Notes under the pieces: model-generated
Seen by the model: only the letters and a program-made list of their open reading frames with translations
Database searches by the model: none
Told to the model about the DNA's origin: nothing
Program-made: the position numbers and the translations under genes
From: an uncultured Bacteroidales bacterium
GTDB taxonomy: Bacteria > Bacteroidota > Bacteroidia > Bacteroidales > JAEINX01
Reading direction: 5' to 3'
NCBI GenBank assembly: GCA_964462015.1
Contig: CAYWXI010000010.1
Coordinates: 19,819-83,818, forward strand
DNA length: 64,000 nucleotides
Shown here: piece after piece, positions 12,108 to 21,180 of the stretch
Layout: each line of letters begins with the position of its first letter
How positions within the stretch are numbered: position 1 is the first letter of the stretch

Positions 12108-12851
12108 ATGGAAGGTAGTAAAGGATTAGAAAACAATAAATTGCCAGAAGGAACAGCATTCAATGAAATTTCAATTCTAGTCGTTGAAGATAATCCTAAT
12201 ATAAATATTTTATTGCAAAAATATCTTGAAAAACTTTCTTTTAATGTTGTGATATGTATTGATGGTGAACAGGGATTCAAATACTTCAAAGAATCACATT
12301 TCGACCTTTGTATTATAGATATTATGATACCCAAAATGGATGGATTTAACCTGGTAAAGAAAATTAGGGCAATTGATGAAAATATCCCTATAATTTTTCT
12401 TACCGCAAAAACTTTTATTGAAGACAGAATAAAAGGATTTGAAGTAGGATGTGATGATTATATGACAAAACCGTTTAGCACACGCGAACTTGGTTTACGT
12501 ATAAATGCAATTCTAAAACGTTCTTTGGTAAACAAAAATGGAAATAAAGGAATTGTTTATCAAATTGGAAGATATGTTTTTGATTATAGCGATATGTCAT
12601 TAATATTGGATGGATCAAAACAGATACTTACAAGAAAGGAAGCTGCACTGTTAAAATTATTTTGTGAAAATAAAAACAGATTGATTCAGCGTAAGGAAGC
12701 AATGATAGCAATATGGGGTAAAGAAGATTATTTCATCGGTAGAAGTATGGATGTTTTTATTACAAAAATAAGAAAACACTTAAAAGCCGATTCCAATATT
12801 TCAATTACCAATGTTCATGGTTCTGGATTTAAACTTGAAGAAAACATATAG
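12108..12851 (+). CDS. OmpR/PhoB-family response regulator (receiver plus winged-helix DNA-binding domain)
   Basis: 'ILVVEDNP', 'DLCIIDIMIPKMDG' and 'FLTAK' receiver motifs. C-terminal trans_reg_C-like 'LTRKEAALLKLF...VFITKIRKHL'. Confidence 0.9.
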   Translation: MEGSKGLENNKLPEGTAFNEISILVVEDNPNINILLQKYLEKLSFNVVICIDGEQGFKYFKESHFDLCIIDIMIPKMDGFNLVKKIRAIDENIPIIFLTAKTFIEDRIKGFEVGCDDYMTKPFSTRELGLRINAILKRSLVNKNGNKGIVYQIGRYVFDYSDMSLILDGSKQILTRKEAALLKLFCENKNRLIQRKEAMIAIWGKEDYFIGRSMDVFITKIRKHLKADSNISITNVHGSGFKLEENI

Positions 12852-13048: not shown

Positions 13049-14707
13049 CTAATCAATAATAGATATTTTCCGTGTTACTACCTTTTCTCCAATCGATATT
13101 CTCAGAAAATATACTCCGGAGATCAAATTCTCACGGTCAATTTTTATTTTATGATTACCTGCTTCGAGTTTACCTTCATCTATTTTATAGACTAATTCAC
13201 CAATAATATTAAAAACACCCAAAGAAACATCTTGTTCTTTTGATAAAACAAAATTGACCTCAGTTGATTCGTTGAAAGGATTTGGAAATATATTCAGGCA
13301 TTCGGTATCAATCAAATTTTCAATACCAACACCACTTTCAGTCTTAAATTGAATAGATTTATATGACTCAAATCCCATCCATTGTGCAATGTATGTATTT
13401 GTACCATAATATAGTACAGCCATTCCAGGTGTCGTAAGGCCATCACCTCCGGCATCATACAGATTAAATTTATAACATTCGGACGAATTAAGATTAAATA
13501 CCTCCTGTATCACCTGGCTTGATTGAGAATACGGTCCACCTGAATAAACAATCTCATTATTATTATCAAGAATTTCCCATGTTGTTTCTTCAGGATTTAC
13601 ATCAGTCCTAAGAAATAATTTTACTTCAGCGGGAGTTTCCTCTGCTTCGGGAATTAATGCTGTTTGAGTATCATTATCGGGATATTGGTCAACATTCCCG
13701 TTTGGATTAGATGTAGTAACTGTCAGAACATTTGAAAGTTCAACTGAAAAATCAATTTGAGGAAGAGTAAAAGTTGCAGTTTCAAGATAGGCTAAATTAC
13801 CTGTCCAGGCAAAAATTTCATTCCCTCCATTGTTTACATTATATTCAATATCAACATTTGTTAAATCATCACTTCCAGTGTTTCGAATAGTAACTTCAGG
13901 TTCTAATAATCCATCACAAATTGCTTCAGGTAACATCGAAATTTTTGTTATTGATGCATCATATTGATTTGTAGTACCAAATTCCGAAATATTCACTTTT
14001 TTGCCTTGTAAAATTTCCTTAGAAGTAGTGTTTTGAATAAACAAGACCAATTCACAATGCTCATAATTCCAATCCGAATCTTTGTTGAATTGCAATGAAA
14101 TTTCCTGTGTATTGCTTTGGGAAAAATCAAGAGTTGTACCAAATTGATTAGGTATCATTAATCTTTCAACAAAATTTAGCTCCGGTAGTCCCTGCCAAAA
14201 TTCCTCAATATGTGATTCGGTAAGAACAGCATGTAACACAAGATTATTGCCGGTGTATGCTGCAACTTTTTCAATAGTTACATTCACATTATATTCTTCA
14301 AGGCCGGTGTTAGTTCCCTCAACAGCAACTGTAAACGATGAAAGGACAGCTTTTCTTTGATTATATTTCGGTAAATACGAAGAATATAAACTTTGTGTTG
14401 AACTTCCACCGGATACTGTAAGTATTCCGTCAAATTTTGAAGTCGGATAACCTGTAACTCCATAGTAATTTATTCTTGATACTGAATAAGAATTTTGGTA
14501 ATCATCTCCGCCGTGATATTCAACTACAGCAACATCATGGCCGTTTTCAATTAAGTCATCCGCACCCATAGCTGCACCCGGGCAATATTGGCACCAGGTA
14601 CCTGTGACAATCTCTAAAATCACCATCTCTCTTTCAACTTGTTGGGCAGTTATAAAATTACCAGTAATAATGATAATGGCAAAGCATAAAATTAATATCT
14701 TTTTCAT
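13049..14707 (-). CDS. secreted thioredoxin-like (Omp28-related type) protein with T9SS type-A C-terminal sorting domain
   Basis: Signal peptide. 'VTGTWCQYCPGAAMG' CxxC motif. C-terminal 'LNIFPNPFNESTEV...GVYFLRISIGEKVVTRKISI', typical of a T9SS CTD. Confidence 0.65.
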   Translation of the reverse strand: MKKILILCFAIIIITGNFITAQQVEREMVILEIVTGTWCQYCPGAAMGADDLIENGHDVAVVEYHGGDDYQNSYSVSRINYYGVTGYPTSKFDGILTVSGGSSTQSLYSSYLPKYNQRKAVLSSFTVAVEGTNTGLEEYNVNVTIEKVAAYTGNNLVLHAVLTESHIEEFWQGLPELNFVERLMIPNQFGTTLDFSQSNTQEISLQFNKDSDWNYEHCELVLFIQNTTSKEILQGKKVNISEFGTTNQYDASITKISMLPEAICDGLLEPEVTIRNTGSDDLTNVDIEYNVNNGGNEIFAWTGNLAYLETATFTLPQIDFSVELSNVLTVTTSNPNGNVDQYPDNDTQTALIPEAEETPAEVKLFLRTDVNPEETTWEILDNNNEIVYSGGPYSQSSQVIQEVFNLNSSECYKFNLYDAGGDGLTTPGMAVLYYGTNTYIAQWMGFESYKSIQFKTESGVGIENLIDTECLNIFPNPFNESTEVNFVLSKEQDVSLGVFNIIGELVYKIDEGKLEAGNHKIKIDRENLISGVYFLRISIGEKVVTRKISIID

Positions 14708-14745
14708 AATTTGTATAATTAAATATATTTAAACTTATAAGTTTG

Positions 14746-14753
14746 CAAATCTA
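14746..14753 (-). promoter_or_regulatory. candidate -7 box (TAGATTTG) for the 13049-14707 gene
   Basis: Plus strand reads CAAATCTA, 39 nt upstream of the ATG at 14707. Confidence 0.35.
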
Positions 14754-14813
14754 TGCTCTTTTTTAAAAGTAGAAATATTTTTTAACTTTTTTTTGTGAAA
14801 AATAAAATATCCG

Positions 14814-14821
14814 TATTTTTG
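14814..14821 (+). promoter_or_regulatory. candidate -7 box (TATTTTTG) for paralog copy 1
   Basis: Matches TAnnTTTG about 125 nt upstream of the ATG at 14946. Confidence 0.3.
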
Positions 14822-14945
14822 TAAACAATTATACAAAAAGATATATATCTATACTATAATGTATAATTTTCGTTCTTATAAAGAAACATTGTCATGTTCT
14901 ATAAGATTTATTAAAATAAAATATTAATTACAAAATTTTAAACCA

Positions 14946-15911
14946 ATGAAAAAAAACTTATTATTCACATTGATTGCCTGCTTATTTATTCTAACAGGCT
15001 TTTCACAAAGTCTTACTCTACAAACTACTGAAGGAGTTAATATTGAAAATGGTGGTGAAATAACTGTTTACGGTGAAGAAACTGCCGTAGAAATTATTAG
15101 TCATCTTCATGTAACAAATACTAGTGCGTCAGCTATTAATGTATCCGTACACAGAAATCAAATTTATATGGTTGATAATACATTTAGTATGTTTTGTTGG
15201 GGTATATGTTATGGCCCTGATGTTAATCAATCAGCATTTCCAATTGAAATAGCTGCCGGAGCTACAAATGAGGATGATTTTTCAGGGCATTATCATCCTG
15301 AAGGAAATATTGGTACTTCAATAGTTTCTTATACTTTTTATGATGAGAGCAATTCCAATGATTCAATTATGGTCATTATTAATTATGCTGCAGGAATAGA
15401 AGGCCAGGCTATTGCAGTTGAGCCAGGATTCCAATTTGTGTCAAGCAGAATTAATCCAACAAACCCTGACCTGATGGTAGTTGCCATGGATATTATAAAT
15501 GATGATCTTGATTATATAAGAAACTCGGAAGGAGCTATGCTAAGAAAAATCGGGCCAAACTGGGTTAATGGTATTGGTGATTGGGTCGGTACAGAAGGGT
15601 ATTTGGTTAAAACTAACGGAACCGGACAATTCAGTGTTGAAGGTACAGTAATACCCGTTGATACACCAATTAATGTAGAAGCAGGCTTTCAATTTGTAAG
15701 CTATTTACCGGACTTTGGAATGGATGCATTACTTGCTTTTGAAACTATCATTGGAGATAACCTGGTATATATTAGAGATTCCGAAGGTTCCATGTTACGA
15801 AAAATCGGACCGAACTGGGTTAACGGTATAGGAGATTGTGCACCTACTGAAGGTTATTTAGTAAAAATGTCAGGAGATGCTGTCCTGGTTTATCCCGGAT
15901 TTGATAAATAA
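14946..15911 (+). CDS. secreted protein of unknown family, tandem paralog 1
   Basis: Signal peptide 'MKKNLLFTLIACLFILTGFSQS'. N-terminal domain with 'FCWGICY'. Two internal ~72-aa repeats containing 'MLRKIGPNWVNGIGD'. Confidence 0.8.
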   Translation: MKKNLLFTLIACLFILTGFSQSLTLQTTEGVNIENGGEITVYGEETAVEIISHLHVTNTSASAINVSVHRNQIYMVDNTFSMFCWGICYGPDVNQSAFPIEIAAGATNEDDFSGHYHPEGNIGTSIVSYTFYDESNSNDSIMVIINYAAGIEGQAIAVEPGFQFVSSRINPTNPDLMVVAMDIINDDLDYIRNSEGAMLRKIGPNWVNGIGDWVGTEGYLVKTNGTGQFSVEGTVIPVDTPINVEAGFQFVSYLPDFGMDALLAFETIIGDNLVYIRDSEGSMLRKIGPNWVNGIGDCAPTEGYLVKMSGDAVLVYPGFDK

Positions 15912-15992
15912 TCTATAAGAATGCTTAAAGAATATTAGCATCAATTATTAATTGAACGAAGTTCTCAAAAAATAATCTTTAGTTCAAAAAAC

Positions 15993-16033
15993 AAAAACCA
16001 CCAGAACATTTAAAAATGTTTTGGTGGTTTTTT
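15993..16033 (+). terminator. intrinsic terminator after paralog 1
   Basis: Arms aaccaccagaacatt / aatgttttggtggtt (one G-U position), loop taaa, then a T-run. Confidence 0.75.
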
Positions 16034-16311
16034 CTATTTAAGGTTTTCCCATTTTGTATTGTGAAACCAAACGATTTCATTTTCCAATATAAAGTCTATC
16101 ATTTGCATTTATTGAGAAATATCTGTTTTTCAACAAAAAGAAAGATTACAAAAACAGATATGAGGATGTTTTGTATTTAACAAATTATAATTTGAATTCT
16201 AATAATGTATGCAACCTTATTATTAAACATTTGTCTATTTATAATATATAACCGTTGTATTAAGAATGCAACATTGAAAATAGATAAATTAAATACTAAA
16301 TCTTTAAGCCC

Positions 16312-17277
16312 ATGAAAAAAAACTTATTATTCGCATTGATTGCCTGTTTATTTATGCTGACAGGCTTTTCACAAAGTCTTACAATACAAACTCCTGAGGG
16401 AGTTAATATTCCAAATGGTGGCGAAATAACAATTTACGGTGAAGAGACTGAATTCGAAATTATTTGTCATCTTTATGTAACAAATATTAGTGCATCAGCT
16501 ATTAATGTTTCAGTACAAAGAAATCATATTTATATGGTAAGTGGTTCAAATAGCTTGTTTTGTTGGGGTATGTGTTATGATACAATTGTTAACCAATCGG
16601 CATTTCCAATTGGAATAGATGCCGGTGCTACTAATGAAGAAGATTTTGCAGGGCATTATCGCCCATGTGGAAATGTAGGAACTTCAAGGATTTCATACAA
16701 ATTTTATGACGACAATAATGCCAATGATTCAATAATGGTTATTGTTAATTATGCTGCAGGAATAGAAGGCCAGGCTATTGCAGTTGAGCCCGGATTCCAA
16801 TTTGTTTCAAGCAGAATAAATCCAACGGATCCTGATTTGATGGTAGTTGCGAACGATATTATTAATGATGACCTTAATTATATAAGAAATTCAGAAGGAG
16901 CTATGTTAAGAAAAATCGGGCCAAATTGGGTTAATGGAATTGGTAATTGGGTAGGTACTGAGGGGTATTTGGTTAAAACCAGCGGAACCGGACAATTCAG
17001 TGTTGAAGGCTCAGTAATACCCGTTGATACACCAATCAATGTAGAAGCAGGCTTTCAATTTGTAAGCTATCTACCTGACTATGGAATGGATGCCATGCTT
17101 GCCTTTGAATCTATTATTGGGGATAACCTAATATATATTAGAGACTCCGAAGGTTCCATGTTAAGAAAAATCGGACCTAACTGGGTTAATGGTATCGGAG
17201 ATTGTGCACCTACTGAAGGTTATTTAGTAAAAATGTCAGGAGATGCTGTCCTGGTTTATCCCGGATTTGATAAATAA
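16312..17277 (+). CDS. secreted protein of unknown family, tandem paralog 2
   Basis: Same architecture as copy 1. The C-terminal half is nearly identical; the N-terminal ~147 aa is clearly diverged. Confidence 0.8.
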   Translation: MKKNLLFALIACLFMLTGFSQSLTIQTPEGVNIPNGGEITIYGEETEFEIICHLYVTNISASAINVSVQRNHIYMVSGSNSLFCWGMCYDTIVNQSAFPIGIDAGATNEEDFAGHYRPCGNVGTSRISYKFYDDNNANDSIMVIVNYAAGIEGQAIAVEPGFQFVSSRINPTDPDLMVVANDIINDDLNYIRNSEGAMLRKIGPNWVNGIGNWVGTEGYLVKTSGTGQFSVEGSVIPVDTPINVEAGFQFVSYLPDYGMDAMLAFESIIGDNLIYIRDSEGSMLRKIGPNWVNGIGDCAPTEGYLVKMSGDAVLVYPGFDK

Positions 17278-17356
17278 TTTATAAGAATGCTTAAAGAATA
17301 TTAGTGTCAATTACTTATTGAACGAAGTTCTCAAAAAATAATCTAATTCAAAAAAC

Positions 17357-17397
17357 AAAAACCACCAAACCAATTTATATTGTTTTGGTGGTTTTTT
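17357..17397 (+). terminator. intrinsic terminator after paralog 2
   Basis: Arms aaccaccaaaccaat / attgttttggtggtt with one mismatch, loop ttat, then a T-run. Confidence 0.75.
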
Positions 17398-17682
17398 CTA
17401 TTTAAGGTTTTCACATTTCGTATTGTGAAACCAAACGACTTCATTTCCCGATATAAAGCCTGTCATTTGAATTTGTTTAGAAGCATTAGTTTTTCACCTG
17501 AAAAGAAGATTGCAAAAACAAATATTAGGATGTTTTATGTTTAGCAAATTATAATTTTAATTCTAACAATGTATGCAACCTAATTATTAAACATTTGTCT
17601 ATTTATAATATATAATCATTATGTTAAGAATGTAACATTGAAGATAGATGAATAAAAAATCAAATATGAAATCTTTAAGCCC

Positions 17683-18651
17683 GTGAAAAAAAAATTATTA
17701 TTCGCATTGATTGCCTGTACATTTATGCTGACAGGCTTATCGCAAAGTCTTACACTACAAACTCCTGAAGGAGTTAATGTTCCAAATGGTGGCGAAATAA
17801 CAATTTACGGTGAAGAAACTGTATACGAAATCATTAGTCATCTTTTTGTAACAAATATTAGTTCAACAGCTATTAATGTTTCAGTTCAAAGACATCAAAT
17901 TTATCTGGTAGAAGGTTCAGGTAACTTGCTTTGTTGGATGATGTGTTTTGATTCTACCGTTAACGTTTCATTATTTCCACTTGAAATAGCTGCCGGAGCT
18001 ACAAATGAAGAAGATTTTTCAGGGCATTATCGTCCGTGGGGAAATGTAGGAATTTCAAGGATTGCATACACTTTTTATGACGACAACAACCCAAATGATT
18101 CTATAATGGCTATTATTAATTATGCTGCAGGTATTTCATCAAGTCAAACTATTGCAATTGAACCCGGATTCCAATTTGTGTCAAGCAGAATTAATCCAAC
18201 TGACCCTGATATGATGGCAGTTGCTATGGACATTATAAATGATGATCTTGTGTATATTAGAAATTCAGAAGGATCTATGTTAAGAAAAATCGGGCCAAAC
18301 TGGGTTAATGGTATAGGTGATTGGGTTGGTACCGAAGGGTATTTGGTGAAAACTAACGGAACCGGACAATTCAGTGTTGAAGGCTCAGTAATACCCGTTG
18401 ACACACCAATTAATGTAGAAGCAGGCTTTCAATTTGTAAGCTATCTACCTGACTATGGAATGGATGCCATGCTTGCCTTTGAATCTATTATTGGGGATAA
18501 CCTAATATATATTAGAGGCTCCGAAGGTTCCATGTTAAGAAAAATCGGACCAAACTGGGTTAATGGTATCGGAGATTGTACTCCTACTCAAGGATATTTA
18601 GTAAAAATGTCAGGAGATGCTATCCTTGTTTACCCCGACTTTGGTAAATAA
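17683..18651 (+). CDS. secreted protein of unknown family, tandem paralog 3
   Basis: GTG start in the ORF track. Same architecture as copies 1 and 2. The motif variant is 'LCWMMCF'. Confidence 0.8.
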   Translation: MKKKLLFALIACTFMLTGLSQSLTLQTPEGVNVPNGGEITIYGEETVYEIISHLFVTNISSTAINVSVQRHQIYLVEGSGNLLCWMMCFDSTVNVSLFPLEIAAGATNEEDFSGHYRPWGNVGISRIAYTFYDDNNPNDSIMAIINYAAGISSSQTIAIEPGFQFVSSRINPTDPDMMAVAMDIINDDLVYIRNSEGSMLRKIGPNWVNGIGDWVGTEGYLVKTNGTGQFSVEGSVIPVDTPINVEAGFQFVSYLPDYGMDAMLAFESIIGDNLIYIRGSEGSMLRKIGPNWVNGIGDCTPTQGYLVKMSGDAILVYPDFGK

Positions 18652-18734
18652 TCTTAAAAAATACTTGAATCAAATTAGTTTCAATTACTAATTAAACAAG
18701 GTTCAAAAAAAAATAGTTTTTAGCTCAAAATACA

Positions 18735-18775
18735 AAAGCCACCGGTACATCAAATAATGTTCCGGTGGCTTTTAT
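18735..18775 (+). terminator. intrinsic terminator after paralog 3
   Basis: Arms aaagccaccggtacat / atgttccggtggcttt with one mismatch, 6-nt loop, T-rich tail. Confidence 0.7.
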
Positions 18776-18994: not shown

Positions 18995-19459
18995 ATGATA
19001 GTTTTTACTAAAATATATCAGCAGAATTATAAAATGGTCTTCCGTTTGGCATATAAATTCTTGAATAACAAGGAAAATGCAGCAGATATTAGCCAGGAAG
19101 TATTTATTAGTTTATATCATCAATTAAAACAAAAAAAAGAAATTCATAACATAAGTTCGTGGTTATATAAAGTTACCAGCAATCAATGCATGAGTTTCTA
19201 CAATAAAAATAAAATAATTACAGGAAAACTTAATGATGAAGAAATAAGTGTTGAAACTCAAAAGGAAAAGAATCCGGAAATTTCTGAGGCCGTTAAAAAA
19301 ATGAAACCACAAGACAATATTCTTCTGACACTTTACAGCGAAGACTTTTCATACAAAGAAATGGCAGAGATAACGGGTATAAAATTTTCATCTATTGGAA
19401 AAACACTCTCACGAGCATTAAACAAACTGAAAAATGAAATCGAATCAGAAAAAAAATGA
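18995..19459 (+). CDS. ECF-type RNA polymerase sigma-70 family factor
   Basis: Region 2 'AADISQEVFISLY' and region 4 HTH 'FSYKEMAEITGIKFSSIGKTLSRALNKL'. Overlaps the downstream anti-sigma gene. Confidence 0.85.
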   Translation: MIVFTKIYQQNYKMVFRLAYKFLNNKENAADISQEVFISLYHQLKQKKEIHNISSWLYKVTSNQCMSFYNKNKIITGKLNDEEISVETQKEKNPEISEAVKKMKPQDNILLTLYSEDFSYKEMAEITGIKFSSIGKTLSRALNKLKNEIESEKK

Positions 19460-19886
19460 TTGTATTAAGGATGCAAGCTTGCAGATGTACATCGACAAAG
19501 AACTGCCTGTTGAGGCCGTCATTTCTGTTGAACAGCATTTGAAAATATGCAAAAACTGTAGACAGAGATTTGAAGATAAAAAGAAATTCATTGAAGACTT
19601 CAAGAATTCATGGCCTTCAATACAGGAAAATAATATTGAAATCGCTTCTTTTCGCAATGATATTAAAAGCAAACACTCTCCAATTCTGCATTATTTAGAA
19701 CAATGGAAATGGGCTGCTGCGGCCATACTTATCATTGGTTTGTTCGCTATATTTCAAAAATCATCCAAACAATCTCAAACTGAAACACAATATATGATTT
19801 ATGATTCACAAATGGAAATAGATGCCAACAAACCCTGGCATGAACAGGAAATGGAAGTATATTTTATTGAAGAAAAAGATAATTAA
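19434..19886 (+). CDS. anti-sigma factor (zf-HC2 type, single-pass membrane)
   Basis: 'EQHLKICKNCRQRF' H-x3-C-x2-C motif. TM helix 'WAAAAILIIGLFAIF'. 26-nt overlap with the sigma gene. Alternative start at 19485. Confidence 0.7.
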   Translation: MKSNQKKNDCIKDASLQMYIDKELPVEAVISVEQHLKICKNCRQRFEDKKKFIEDFKNSWPSIQENNIEIASFRNDIKSKHSPILHYLEQWKWAAAAILIIGLFAIFQKSSKQSQTETQYMIYDSQMEIDANKPWHEQEMEVYFIEEKDN

Positions 19887-19908
19887 CAATTAATCAAAAC
19901 CTATATTT

Positions 19909-21180
19909 ATGAAAACATTAAAATTAATAGCAATCTTAATAATGCTGACCGGAAGTACTAAAGCACAAAACCTGATAAATATTTATAAAAGCGGAAATGT
20001 AAAACTTGTTGCTGAATCCGGTTTCGGGAAATCAAACGATTGGAATTCGGTTTTTAGTACTTATAAAGATACTATATATCAAAAGCATGTTGGAGCAAGA
20101 AAATCACTGGTTCTTTTGCCGGATGGATCGGTTATTGTTAACAATACTTACAGGGATTTCTTTACCCTATTCAAACCGGATGGAAGTTTTTATAAAAACT
20201 TTAGCATAAGAAATTCATCAGATATTATACTCTCAACTCCCGCTATCAAAGGTGTTCTTGATAATGAAATATTATTTACCGGTGTTACTAATTACGGAAA
20301 AATGTTTTGTTGTGATTTTAGTGGTAAGCTAATCAAAACTTTGAATGTTGATTATATGACAGGCGACATCATTCCTCTGCCAGGCCGAAAACTTGCCATT
20401 GTTGGTTGGGCAATTTGGGATACAAAGTTCCGCGACTTTTTGGCCATCAAGGATTATGAAACGGGAGAAGAAAAAATTATCTGGAGTCATTTCACCGACA
20501 GGTCAAAAGATCAGAGTATCTCGGTTGAAGTCACACAAAAAAACAATAAAACAAGTATTATGACTCTTCCTTCTTTGGGTGGAAATCTGGGAATACGACC
20601 CAGACCTATGGTAAGACTTACAAAAGACAATGAAATAATGCTTGCTATCCCGCCAACCGGCGAATTAATATTCTTTGATCTGAATGGTAAAGAACTGCAA
20701 TCGACCTATGTGAGCTGGGAAAATGAACAAACTTCAATAGAAGAACAGCAAAAACTTTACTCAAAAAGGATGGAAAAATACAAACAAATTTCTGAAAACA
20801 AACAATATATTGAACGATTTGGCAGTGAAGAAGCAAGCAGAATATCACAAGAACTGCTTGACAAACTCAAAAAAGAAAAAGAACTTTATATGAAATCCGA
20901 AGAACTACCCTTTATCTCAACCATTCTTCAGGATTCCGACAATAATTTATTGTTTTTTGAATACCCAAAAGAAAAAGGTTCAAACCAATTTAATGTATAT
21001 GCTTTCAATCATGGAGGAAAATTTGTTTGCAAATCATCATTTGTATGCGATAATTACGATTTGATTATTAACTCAGAGCGTTTGAAATTTTTCAATGGAT
21101 GCCTCTATGGAATACAAAAACTGAAATCCTATAAAGGGGTCCCGATAAGATTGGTTAAATTTAACCTGGAGACTGAGTAA
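19909..21180 (+). CDS. secreted protein of unknown function (third gene of the ECF module)
   Basis: Signal peptide 'MKTLKLIAILIMLTGSTKAQ'. Internal Lys/Glu-rich predicted coiled coil. No family recognised. Confidence 0.6.
   Translation: MKTLKLIAILIMLTGSTKAQNLINIYKSGNVKLVAESGFGKSNDWNSVFSTYKDTIYQKHVGARKSLVLLPDGSVIVNNTYRDFFTLFKPDGSFYKNFSIRNSSDIILSTPAIKGVLDNEILFTGVTNYGKMFCCDFSGKLIKTLNVDYMTGDIIPLPGRKLAIVGWAIWDTKFRDFLAIKDYETGEEKIIWSHFTDRSKDQSISVEVTQKNNKTSIMTLPSLGGNLGIRPRPMVRLTKDNEIMLAIPPTGELIFFDLNGKELQSTYVSWENEQTSIEEQQKLYSKRMEKYKQISENKQYIERFGSEEASRISQELLDKLKKEKELYMKSEELPFISTILQDSDNNLLFFEYPKEKGSNQFNVYAFNHGGKFVCKSSFVCDNYDLIINSERLKFFNGCLYGIQKLKSYKGVPIRLVKFNLETE

Follow-up and report, generated by a model that had tools for sequence, protein, structure and literature searches.

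The DNA analyzed here is a stretch of 64,000 nucleotides (nt) from an uncultured Bacteroidales bacterium (GenBank assembly GCA_964462015.1, contig CAYWXI010000010.1, positions 19,819 to 83,818 of the forward strand), referred to below as the window, and its subject is a tandem array of three secreted-protein genes. Each predicted protein appears to join an N-terminal head, similar to the N-terminal domain of Porphyromonas PorA, to a C-terminal module of two related repeats. The three open reading frames (ORFs) are intact, lie in direct orientation on the plus strand, and encode 321, 321, and 322 amino acids (aa): copy 1 at 14946-15911, copy 2 at 16312-17277, and copy 3, which has a GTG start, at 17683-18651. 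In copy 1, the signal peptide occupies 14946-15008, the head 15009-15395, and the module 15396-15908. A first-pass annotation made from the sequence alone had described three head-to-tail cassettes with start-to-start distances of 1366 nt (copies 1 and 2) and 1371 nt (copies 2 and 3); this was borne out by the ORFs and by direct-repeat families with periods of 1366 and 1371-1374 nt, identified with a repeat finder, in which 300-nt blocks share 78-90% identity, far beyond chance. As the copies differ from one another at 10-25% of nucleotides, an assembly artifact was rejected. The repeat unit comprises the gene, a terminator, and about 280 nt of conserved sequence, and the array holds two full spacers on the plus strand (15912-16311 and 17278-17682) which, as had been claimed, align along their whole length (86% identity over a 405-nt alignment). 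Downstream of copy 3, homology to the spacers extends through the terminator only (about 125 nt). No further copies of the head or the module were found elsewhere in the 64-kb window.

The signal peptide proposed for each copy also held up when read from the sequence (MKKNLLFTLIACLFILTGFS, followed by QS). Cleavage before Gln, seen in all the module-bearing proteins inspected (ends such as ...AFP-Q and ...GFS-Q), is the 'Q' pattern of Bacteroidota. Lipoprotein anchoring through Cys12 (LIAC) was considered and rejected, as the signal peptide is of type I, ends ...GFS-Q, and has this residue within its hydrophobic core. In the public annotation, copy 3 (P0011, 308 aa) begins at a later Met, 14 codons downstream (region 17683-17727), with loss of the signal peptide. 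The second copy at L005, one of the related loci (denoted by L numbers), is annotated with an upstream extension (P0006, 340 aa).

No family match was obtained for the three window proteins in Pfam or NCBIfam, and the first-pass annotation had recognized no family for either half. This stands for the C-terminal half, which matches no known family, but not for the N-terminal half. An AlphaFold2 model of the copy 1 head, built on an alignment of 73 family members (predicted local distance difference test [pLDDT] score, 98.3), is a beta-barrel of the PorA-N/FimH-like type, and its top Foldseek match in the PDB is 6KJK, the PorA N-terminal domain (E value, 3.3e-8; template modeling [TM] scores, 0.79/0.77; root mean square deviation, 2.9 Å). 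The next matches are the lectin domains of FimH and FmlH (E values, 5e-7 to 1e-5; TM scores, 0.57-0.61). At the sequence level, the head family profile matches 6KJK with an E value of 5.3e-7, aligning the family's FCWGlC with LCFGQC of PorA, the cysteines of which are Cys92 and Cys96 (PMC12152298). N37, C63, C67, and G102 (domain numbering) are invariant in the head family. The cysteine pair (C84/C88 in copy 1), which the first-pass annotation had picked out, is kept in all three copies (FCWGICY, FCWGMCY, and LCWMMCF), as is the GHY(H/R)P block. On the predicted fold and these profile matches, the N-terminal half can with confidence be called homologous to the FimH-like N-domain of PorA from Porphyromonas.

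PorA itself (PGN_0123 of P. gingivalis) is a 246-aa protein consisting of a signal peptide, the N-domain, and a C-terminal type IX secretion system (T9SS) sorting domain, and its discoverers reported BLAST homologues only in Porphyromonas (PMC7712824). The sorting domain directs export and activates PorY; activation does not reside in the N-domain, in which the FimH-like site and the Cys pair are both dispensable for signaling (PMC12152298). The window proteins share with PorA a small size, a Sec signal peptide, the N-terminal barrel fold, and the CxGxC motif (PorA C92/C96 against C84/C88 here). However, identity between PorA-N and the window head is only about 20%, the PorA gene is single copy, and the window proteins carry the twin-repeat module in place of the sorting domain. 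The T9SS type A sorting domain models PF18962 and TIGR04183 gave no match to any of the three copies at an E value of ≤1, and with neither a type A nor a type B C-terminal sorting domain the window copies fall outside T9SS cargo as usually defined. As the sorting domain that defines PorA was sought and is absent, they are PorA-N-domain proteins rather than PorA orthologues. The FimH and FmlH lectin domains have the beta-barrel topology in common with the window head and are likewise binding heads set on a separate anchoring part, but identity is 9-14% in a comparison of overall fold alone, and the window has no pilin domain, usher, or chaperone genes.

Residues 22-150, which comprise the head, were used as the query of an exhaustive HMMER search (E value, ≤0.001), which returned a family of 1176 cluster representatives (clustered at 50% identity). 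Typical members are about 240, 370, or 510 aa long, with one, two, or three heads and a C-terminal T9SS type A sorting domain. When the head alone was the query, a word-index protein search gave no matches and a metagenome scan yielded only five loci, one of them already known. The heads of this PorA-N-like T9SS cargo are 35-49% identical to the window head, and their signal peptides are of the same type; unlike the window proteins, they carry the sorting domain, and in some the head is multiplied within the polypeptide, whereas in the window multiplication is at the level of the gene and the module is lineage specific. The sorting domain that usually follows the head across the family is replaced here by the twin-repeat module.

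The C-terminal half of each window protein is an internal duplication of 2 × about 85 aa, which the first-pass annotation had missed. In copy 1, the twin-repeat module spans 15402-15899 on the plus strand, the first repeat running from 15402 to 15656 and the second from 15657 to 15899; across the array this appears as a 121-nt unit that occurs six times, with a 255-nt period inside each gene. Each repeat carries the motif LRKIGPNWVNGIGD ... EGYLVK, and the two repeats of a module share 61-63% protein identity. The structural model of the module (pLDDT, about 85-90) is all beta. No relatives of the module were found in Pfam, NCBIfam, the PDB, or BFVD, and a Foldseek search of the PDB and BFVD with the full model gave nothing at an E value of <0.01. 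Searching PDB sequences with the module profile retrieved only alphaRep/HEAT designs, at ≤4 bits per repeat, which were rejected as spurious, and a profile search with a single-repeat alignment retrieved only fragments from the same lineage.

The module (residues 151-321) was present in all 120 of the matches listed, at 55-70% identity and always as a complete repeat pair. It may immediately follow the signal peptide, lie in mid-protein, or form the very C terminus, and its partners among the matches listed include Fib_succ_major (46 proteins) and the T9SS C-terminal sorting domain (25 proteins), as well as PAD (arginine/agmatine deiminase family), FGE-sulfatase, Chlam_PMP, PCMD, BNR, PKD, G8, CUB, and NPCBM. 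Every module protein whose N terminus was inspected has a signal peptide of the Sec type I kind, with the end ...F(P/S)-Q. When one genome per species was searched (185,579 species), 172 matches were confirmed and 77 loci were returned, all of them in three Bacteroidales metagenome-assembled genomes (MAGs): 41 in MAG15, 35 in a second genome, and one in a third. Distinct modules within the fetched flanks number at least 58 for MAG15 and at least 44 for the second genome, with a median pairwise identity of 59% and a minimum of 46%. Module genes are often clustered, and 22 fetched loci (within L007-L083, in MAG15 and the CAZBSL genomes) contain two or three. The module therefore appears to be almost confined to one uncultured Bacteroidales lineage. 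A 2234-aa T9SS protein encoded at 192-6896 of L090 (contig Ga0075111_1000438) has a PorA-N-like domain followed by a very divergent module (25% identity; tblastn E value, 5e-7) with the signatures 'EGWNSMSSYLTP ... SGYVLKV' and 'GWYYMPVL ... PGMAYAIKV' and with no Pfam model over it, which indicates that distant relatives of the module exist outside the lineage and suggests that the window module belongs, as a specialized branch, to a broader beta domain that is unannotated.

The T9SS C-terminal sorting domain, dockerin, and the S-layer homology (SLH) domain each mark a sorting or assembly system. Like the twin-repeat module, these docking modules are single conserved modules found on dozens of unrelated secreted proteins, and dockerin is also internally duplicated. 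The twin-repeat module differs from them in matching no known family, in not being bound to the C terminus, and in standing beside a T9SS sorting domain in 25 proteins; it has no Pfam match to cohesin or to dockerin with its Ca-binding repeats. An alternative is that the module binds a substrate, in the manner of a carbohydrate-binding module, and directs numerous enzymes and lectins to a single polymer. Enzyme- and lectin-like partners (PAD, FGE-sulfatase, BNR, NPCBM, and Fib_succ_major), the independence of its position within proteins, and its all-beta tandem-repeat build would fit such a role, whereas the lack of similarity to known carbohydrate-binding families in Pfam or the PDB and the median identity of 59% over more than 100 paralogues, unusual for such modules, do not. 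A substrate-binding module is a possibility to which we give little weight, and the present evidence does not separate it from a docking one.

Divergence among the three window copies was examined by the Nei-Gojobori method, and mean values were obtained over 11 sequences. The counts of amino acid substitutions between copies 1 and 2 given in the first-pass annotation proved sound: the first 150 aa hold 36, of which 2 fall within the signal peptide and 34 within aa 22-150, and aa 151-321 hold 10. Among the window copies, synonymous divergence (dS) is 0.25-0.48 in the head (aa 22-150) and 0.31-0.42 in the module (aa 151-321), with ratios of nonsynonymous to synonymous divergence (dN/dS) of 0.33-0.58 and 0.08-0.18, respectively. 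Over the 11 sequences, mean dN/dS is 0.27 for the head, with a maximum of 0.44 in any sub-region, and 0.14 for the module. As dS is equal and dN unequal in the two halves, the asymmetry of 34 against 10 amino acid changes within the window is due mainly to stronger purifying selection on the module and not to recent homogenization.

These values also bear on the proposal of the first-pass annotation that the array arose by recent duplication with positive selection on a surface-exposed N-terminal domain. The head does accumulate three to four times as many amino acid changes as the module, and its variability is focused on residues 69, 76-80, 90-93, and 119, mostly in or beside predicted loops, where as many as seven different residues occur among the 11 sequences. 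Between copies 2 and 3, single 30-codon segments have dN above dS, such as codons 51-80 (dS, 0.06; dN, 0.19). However, these segments coincide with a tract of low dS in copies 2 and 3, which inflates the ratio there; dS in this pair also falls to about 0 at codons 251-280. A dN/dS well below 1 in the N-terminal domain had been named beforehand as the result that would speak against diversifying selection, and this is what was found, as no sub-region reaches 1. Recent duplication sits no better with the synonymous divergence between the copies, with head types that are common to several genomes, or with an ancestral inter-copy spacer that is shared, at 76-77% identity, with a two-copy relative. 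Recent duplication under positive selection is accordingly very improbable.

Copy number at the same syntenic site in related genomes, a comparison that the first-pass annotation had put forward, is one (L001, L002-4, and L084), two (L005 and L086/L008), or three (the window). In L008 (CAZBSL010000172.1), a run of N at 2595-2775 covers the 5' part of the second cassette copy, and the intact two-copy version lies on L086. Bootstrapped neighbor-joining trees were constructed separately for head and module. In the module tree, sequences group by genome, with L086a and L086b, the two copies of L086, joined at 100% bootstrap support and the three window copies at 88-93%. The head tree groups them by type: ERZ_L002 with L086a (98%), L086b with copies 2 and 3 (96%), and copy 1 with JGI5b (82%). 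The two trees are thus discordant, and the mosaic divergence along the cassette that the first-pass annotation described is real. For the quartet of copy 1, copy 2, L086a, and L086b, 35 informative sites in the module support grouping by genome and one supports grouping by type, while in the head core (codons 60-150) 8 support genome and 16 support type; with third positions alone the ratios (by genome to by type) are 21:1 for the module and 4:8 for the head core. Between L086a and L086b, the head has a dS of 0.96 ± 0.20, against 0.44 ± 0.08 for the module. A gene-conversion test, also proposed at the outset, was carried out on three sequences with our own implementation of a Sawyer-type method, in which the lengths of shared-site runs at polymorphic positions are compared with permutations, and significant runs were found between copies 2 and 3 (P = 0.0003; 15705-15765 in copy 1 coordinates) and between copies 1 and 2 (P = 0.0006; terminator region).

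The inter-copy spacer is shared as well: spacer 1 is 77% identical over 351 nt to that of the two-copy L086, the window spacers overall are 76-77% identical to it over about 340 nt, and there is partial homology to the spacer of L005. Together, the discordant trees, the quartets, the dS values of L086, and the shared spacer indicate that the tandem pair is older than the divergence of the compared genomes and that the module has been homogenized by conversion. Gene conversion within genomes, which is supported with the qualifications set out below, has acted on the module and, to a lesser extent, on the 5' end, while the head core (codons about 60-150) keeps paralogue lineages that predate the genome split. 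Copies 2 and 3 represent a later duplication of one head type. The earlier suggestion that conversion homogenizes the C-terminal half consequently holds across genomes, on the evidence of trees, quartets, and run tests, but not as the main cause of the asymmetry within the window.

The module tree might instead record the true history, with independent duplications in each lineage and with head grouping produced by convergence or by head exchange. This reading would account for the grouping of modules by genome at 88-100% bootstrap support, for the weaker by-type signal of the head at third positions (where JGI5a and JGI5b group together at 66%), and for the oddly low head dS between genomes. 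It would not lead one to expect a spacer that is homologous between the window and L086 and partly so with L005, and it conflicts with the higher dS of the head than of the module between L086a and L086b and with third-position quartets that favor type in the head core and genome in the module. We regard independent duplication as unlikely.

Several observations nevertheless weigh against an old, conversion-homogenized array. Short-read assemblies may collapse tandem copies, so that the one-copy counts are perhaps too low. At third codon positions, the bootstrap values of the by-type head groups drop to 32-66%, and part of the grouping could therefore reflect parallel amino acid change. Within the window the module has not been homogenized recently, as its dS of 0.31-0.42 indicates. 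Finally, between genomes it is the head that has the lower dS (for example, 0.36-0.52, with 0.70-0.82 for the module, when the window copies are compared with L001, which is from MAG15), a pattern not predicted by simple concerted evolution; conversion from a lost or divergent donor, head exchange between lineages, or a difference in rate are possible causes. Concerted evolution of modules across whole genomes was also considered and was rejected, as 56 of 102 modules have their closest relative outside their own genome and the median best between-genome match is 81%; homogenization is thus local, a property of tandem or adjacent copies. With these points taken into account, the evolutionary history as a whole is put forward with good confidence. 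The window array resembles known tandem paralogue arrays with domain-restricted concerted evolution, such as families of bacterial surface-protein genes whose conserved ends are homogenized around a central region that remains distinct, in its direct repeats, conversion tracts, and variable copy number, and in having a conserved part that groups by genome and a variable part that groups by type. Tandem paralogues, domain-restricted conversion, and unequal constraint are textbook evolution and would not surprise a specialist.

The first-pass annotation had further likened the array to a contingency or variable surface-protein locus, in which copies would be switched or recombined to vary a surface antigen. 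The tandem arrangement of variable secreted-protein genes and the differences in copy number among related genomes are in keeping with this, as is a run of eight, eight, and nine A residues at codons 2-4 of copies 1, 2, and 3 (14949-14956, 16315-16322, and 17686-17694). Although long enough for slippage in principle, these runs are most simply explained as the AAA codons of the Lys-Lys pair in an ordinary signal-peptide n-region, in a genome of 31% GC. A search for simple-sequence repeat arrays found none, no inverted repeats bracket a promoter (only the terminator hairpins and short chance matches were seen), and no recombinase gene lies among the neighbors. Compared with bacterial surface-protein arrays, the window array shows no sign of antigenic or phase variation, all three ORFs are intact, and even the variable part is under purifying selection. 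A contingency locus is hardly credible on this evidence.

Each gene was said to have its own homologous hairpin terminator, and this was confirmed. The hairpins, all on the plus strand, lie at 15993-16032 (an 18-pair stem followed by a T-run; -22.6 kcal/mol; z score, -5.3), 17357-17396 (-18.9 kcal/mol; z score, -4.5), and 18734-18773 (-25.3 kcal/mol; z score, -8.1), the last marking the end of the array, with spacer homology stopping shortly after it. They are homologous to one another, each has a T-run, and no dinucleotide shuffle folded equally well; a simple terminator scan flagged only the first, while folding energy against dinucleotide shuffles supports all three. An Rfam scan of the array and spacers gave nothing near threshold. 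Between the divergent upstream gene and copy 1, a putative shared divergent promoter region (14708-14945) shares 80-87% identity with its counterpart in relatives, upstream of their first or single copy, and has no homology to the inter-copy spacers; the similar upstream spacer of about 400 nt that had been ascribed to every copy is thus found for copies 2 and 3 but not for copy 1. The region contains TATTTTTG at 14814, which fits the Bacteroidetes -7 consensus TAnnTTTG. An exact match to this consensus is present only upstream of copy 1 and is absent from spacer 1. Copy 1 would accordingly be transcribed from the conserved divergent promoter region, and each gene would be closed by its own terminator; the roughly 280 nt of conserved sequence in spacer 1 would contain a promoter or leader for copy 2. 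The lack of an identified promoter for copies 2 and 3 is a weakness of this scheme, as these copies need either a promoter of unrecognized type in the conserved spacer, which is presumed here, or read-through of the terminators.

The gene that diverges from the cassette (13049-14707, minus strand) encodes a 552-aa Omp28-like, thioredoxin-like protein with a T9SS type A sorting domain (Omp28 E value, 5e-11; Por_Secre_tail E value, 6e-12) and the motif GTWCQYCPG. It partly matches the NCBIfam model Omp28_seleno ('Omp28-related selenoprotein'; E value, 1.5e-21), below the cut-off of the model. This gene stands head-to-head with the cassette in every related contig. A head domain inside the Omp28-like neighbor was considered and rejected, as the profile-profile match to the head family comprised the T9SS sorting domain only. 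When 12 long multidomain members of the head family were scanned, Omp28 was found upstream of the head in the same polypeptide in six (P0184, P0239, P0203, P0211, P0252, and P0262), and one further member has an AhpC/TSA thioredoxin-like domain. At 2802-8384 of L091 (contig Ga0207996_1001522), a single 1860-aa protein combines an Omp28-like thioredoxin-like domain, fn3/DUF4082 repeats, a PorA-N-like domain, GEVED, the module (59% identical to that of copy 1), and a T9SS sorting domain. This fusion of Omp28, head, and module, which in the window are spread over separate neighboring genes, suggests a joint function for the three parts of the locus. A redox relation between the GTWCQYCPG protein and the invariant CxGxC of the head is conceivable.

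Farther upstream, an OmpR-type response regulator gene (12108-12851, plus strand; Response_reg and Trans_reg_C matches) occupies the same position in all related contigs. Between the array and a gene for a 281-aa protein, the window also holds, at 18995-21180, an extracytoplasmic function (ECF) sigma factor, a zf-HC2 anti-sigma factor, and a 423-aa secreted protein. In L001 and L002, the counterpart of the 281-aa gene directly follows the cassette (as judged by gene order and by lengths of 279-281, 669-672, and 490 aa). As the block is missing between the cassette and the next gene there, it has the look of a rearrangement or insertion peculiar to the window's genome. The window proteins could on this basis be PorA-like signaling ligands that report secretion status to the upstream OmpR-type regulator or to the downstream ECF sigma/anti-sigma pair, given that the head is homologous to PorA-N, that the regulator lies two genes upstream in all relatives, and that the sigma/anti-sigma pair directly follows the array in the window. 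Against this, PorA activity resides in the PorY-binding T9SS sorting domain (PMC12152298), which the window proteins lack, the sigma/anti-sigma block is not beside the cassette in relatives, and no sensor kinase adjoins the array in the window. A signaling role of this kind is quite unlikely.

Considered as a whole, the array is probably, albeit with only moderate confidence, an old tandem family of PorA-N-like heads on a twin-repeat module, homogenized by conversion and acting with the Omp28-like protein. Each gene product would be a Sec-exported, two-part protein. From this anatomy, the heads may be ligand-binding domains with differing loop sequences, and the module, common to all of them, may dock or anchor them on one envelope partner; domain fusions elsewhere suggest that heads and module act with the divergently encoded Omp28-like T9SS protein. 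A functional model of variable binding heads on a common docking module can only be proposed tentatively. It is opposed by the possibility that, having neither a T9SS sorting domain nor a lipobox, the window proteins stay in the periplasm. A more speculative and rather unlikely extension is that the module is an undescribed docking or sorting domain of this lineage, by which secreted proteins with no T9SS sorting domain could bind to, or be carried along with, surface proteins that the T9SS delivers, the Omp28-like neighbor among them; conversion between tandem copies would then keep the module fitted to a receptor particular to each genome as the PorA-like heads diversify.

In this lineage the module is carried by about 60 secreted proteins per genome, and if it were a true marker of a sorting or assembly system, that system would be a new one. 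The PorA-N-like proteins form a large, unannotated family of T9SS cargo that has neither a Pfam nor an NCBIfam model, and the repeated fusions to Omp28 offer a testable lead on the role of the still-unexplained PorA-N domain.

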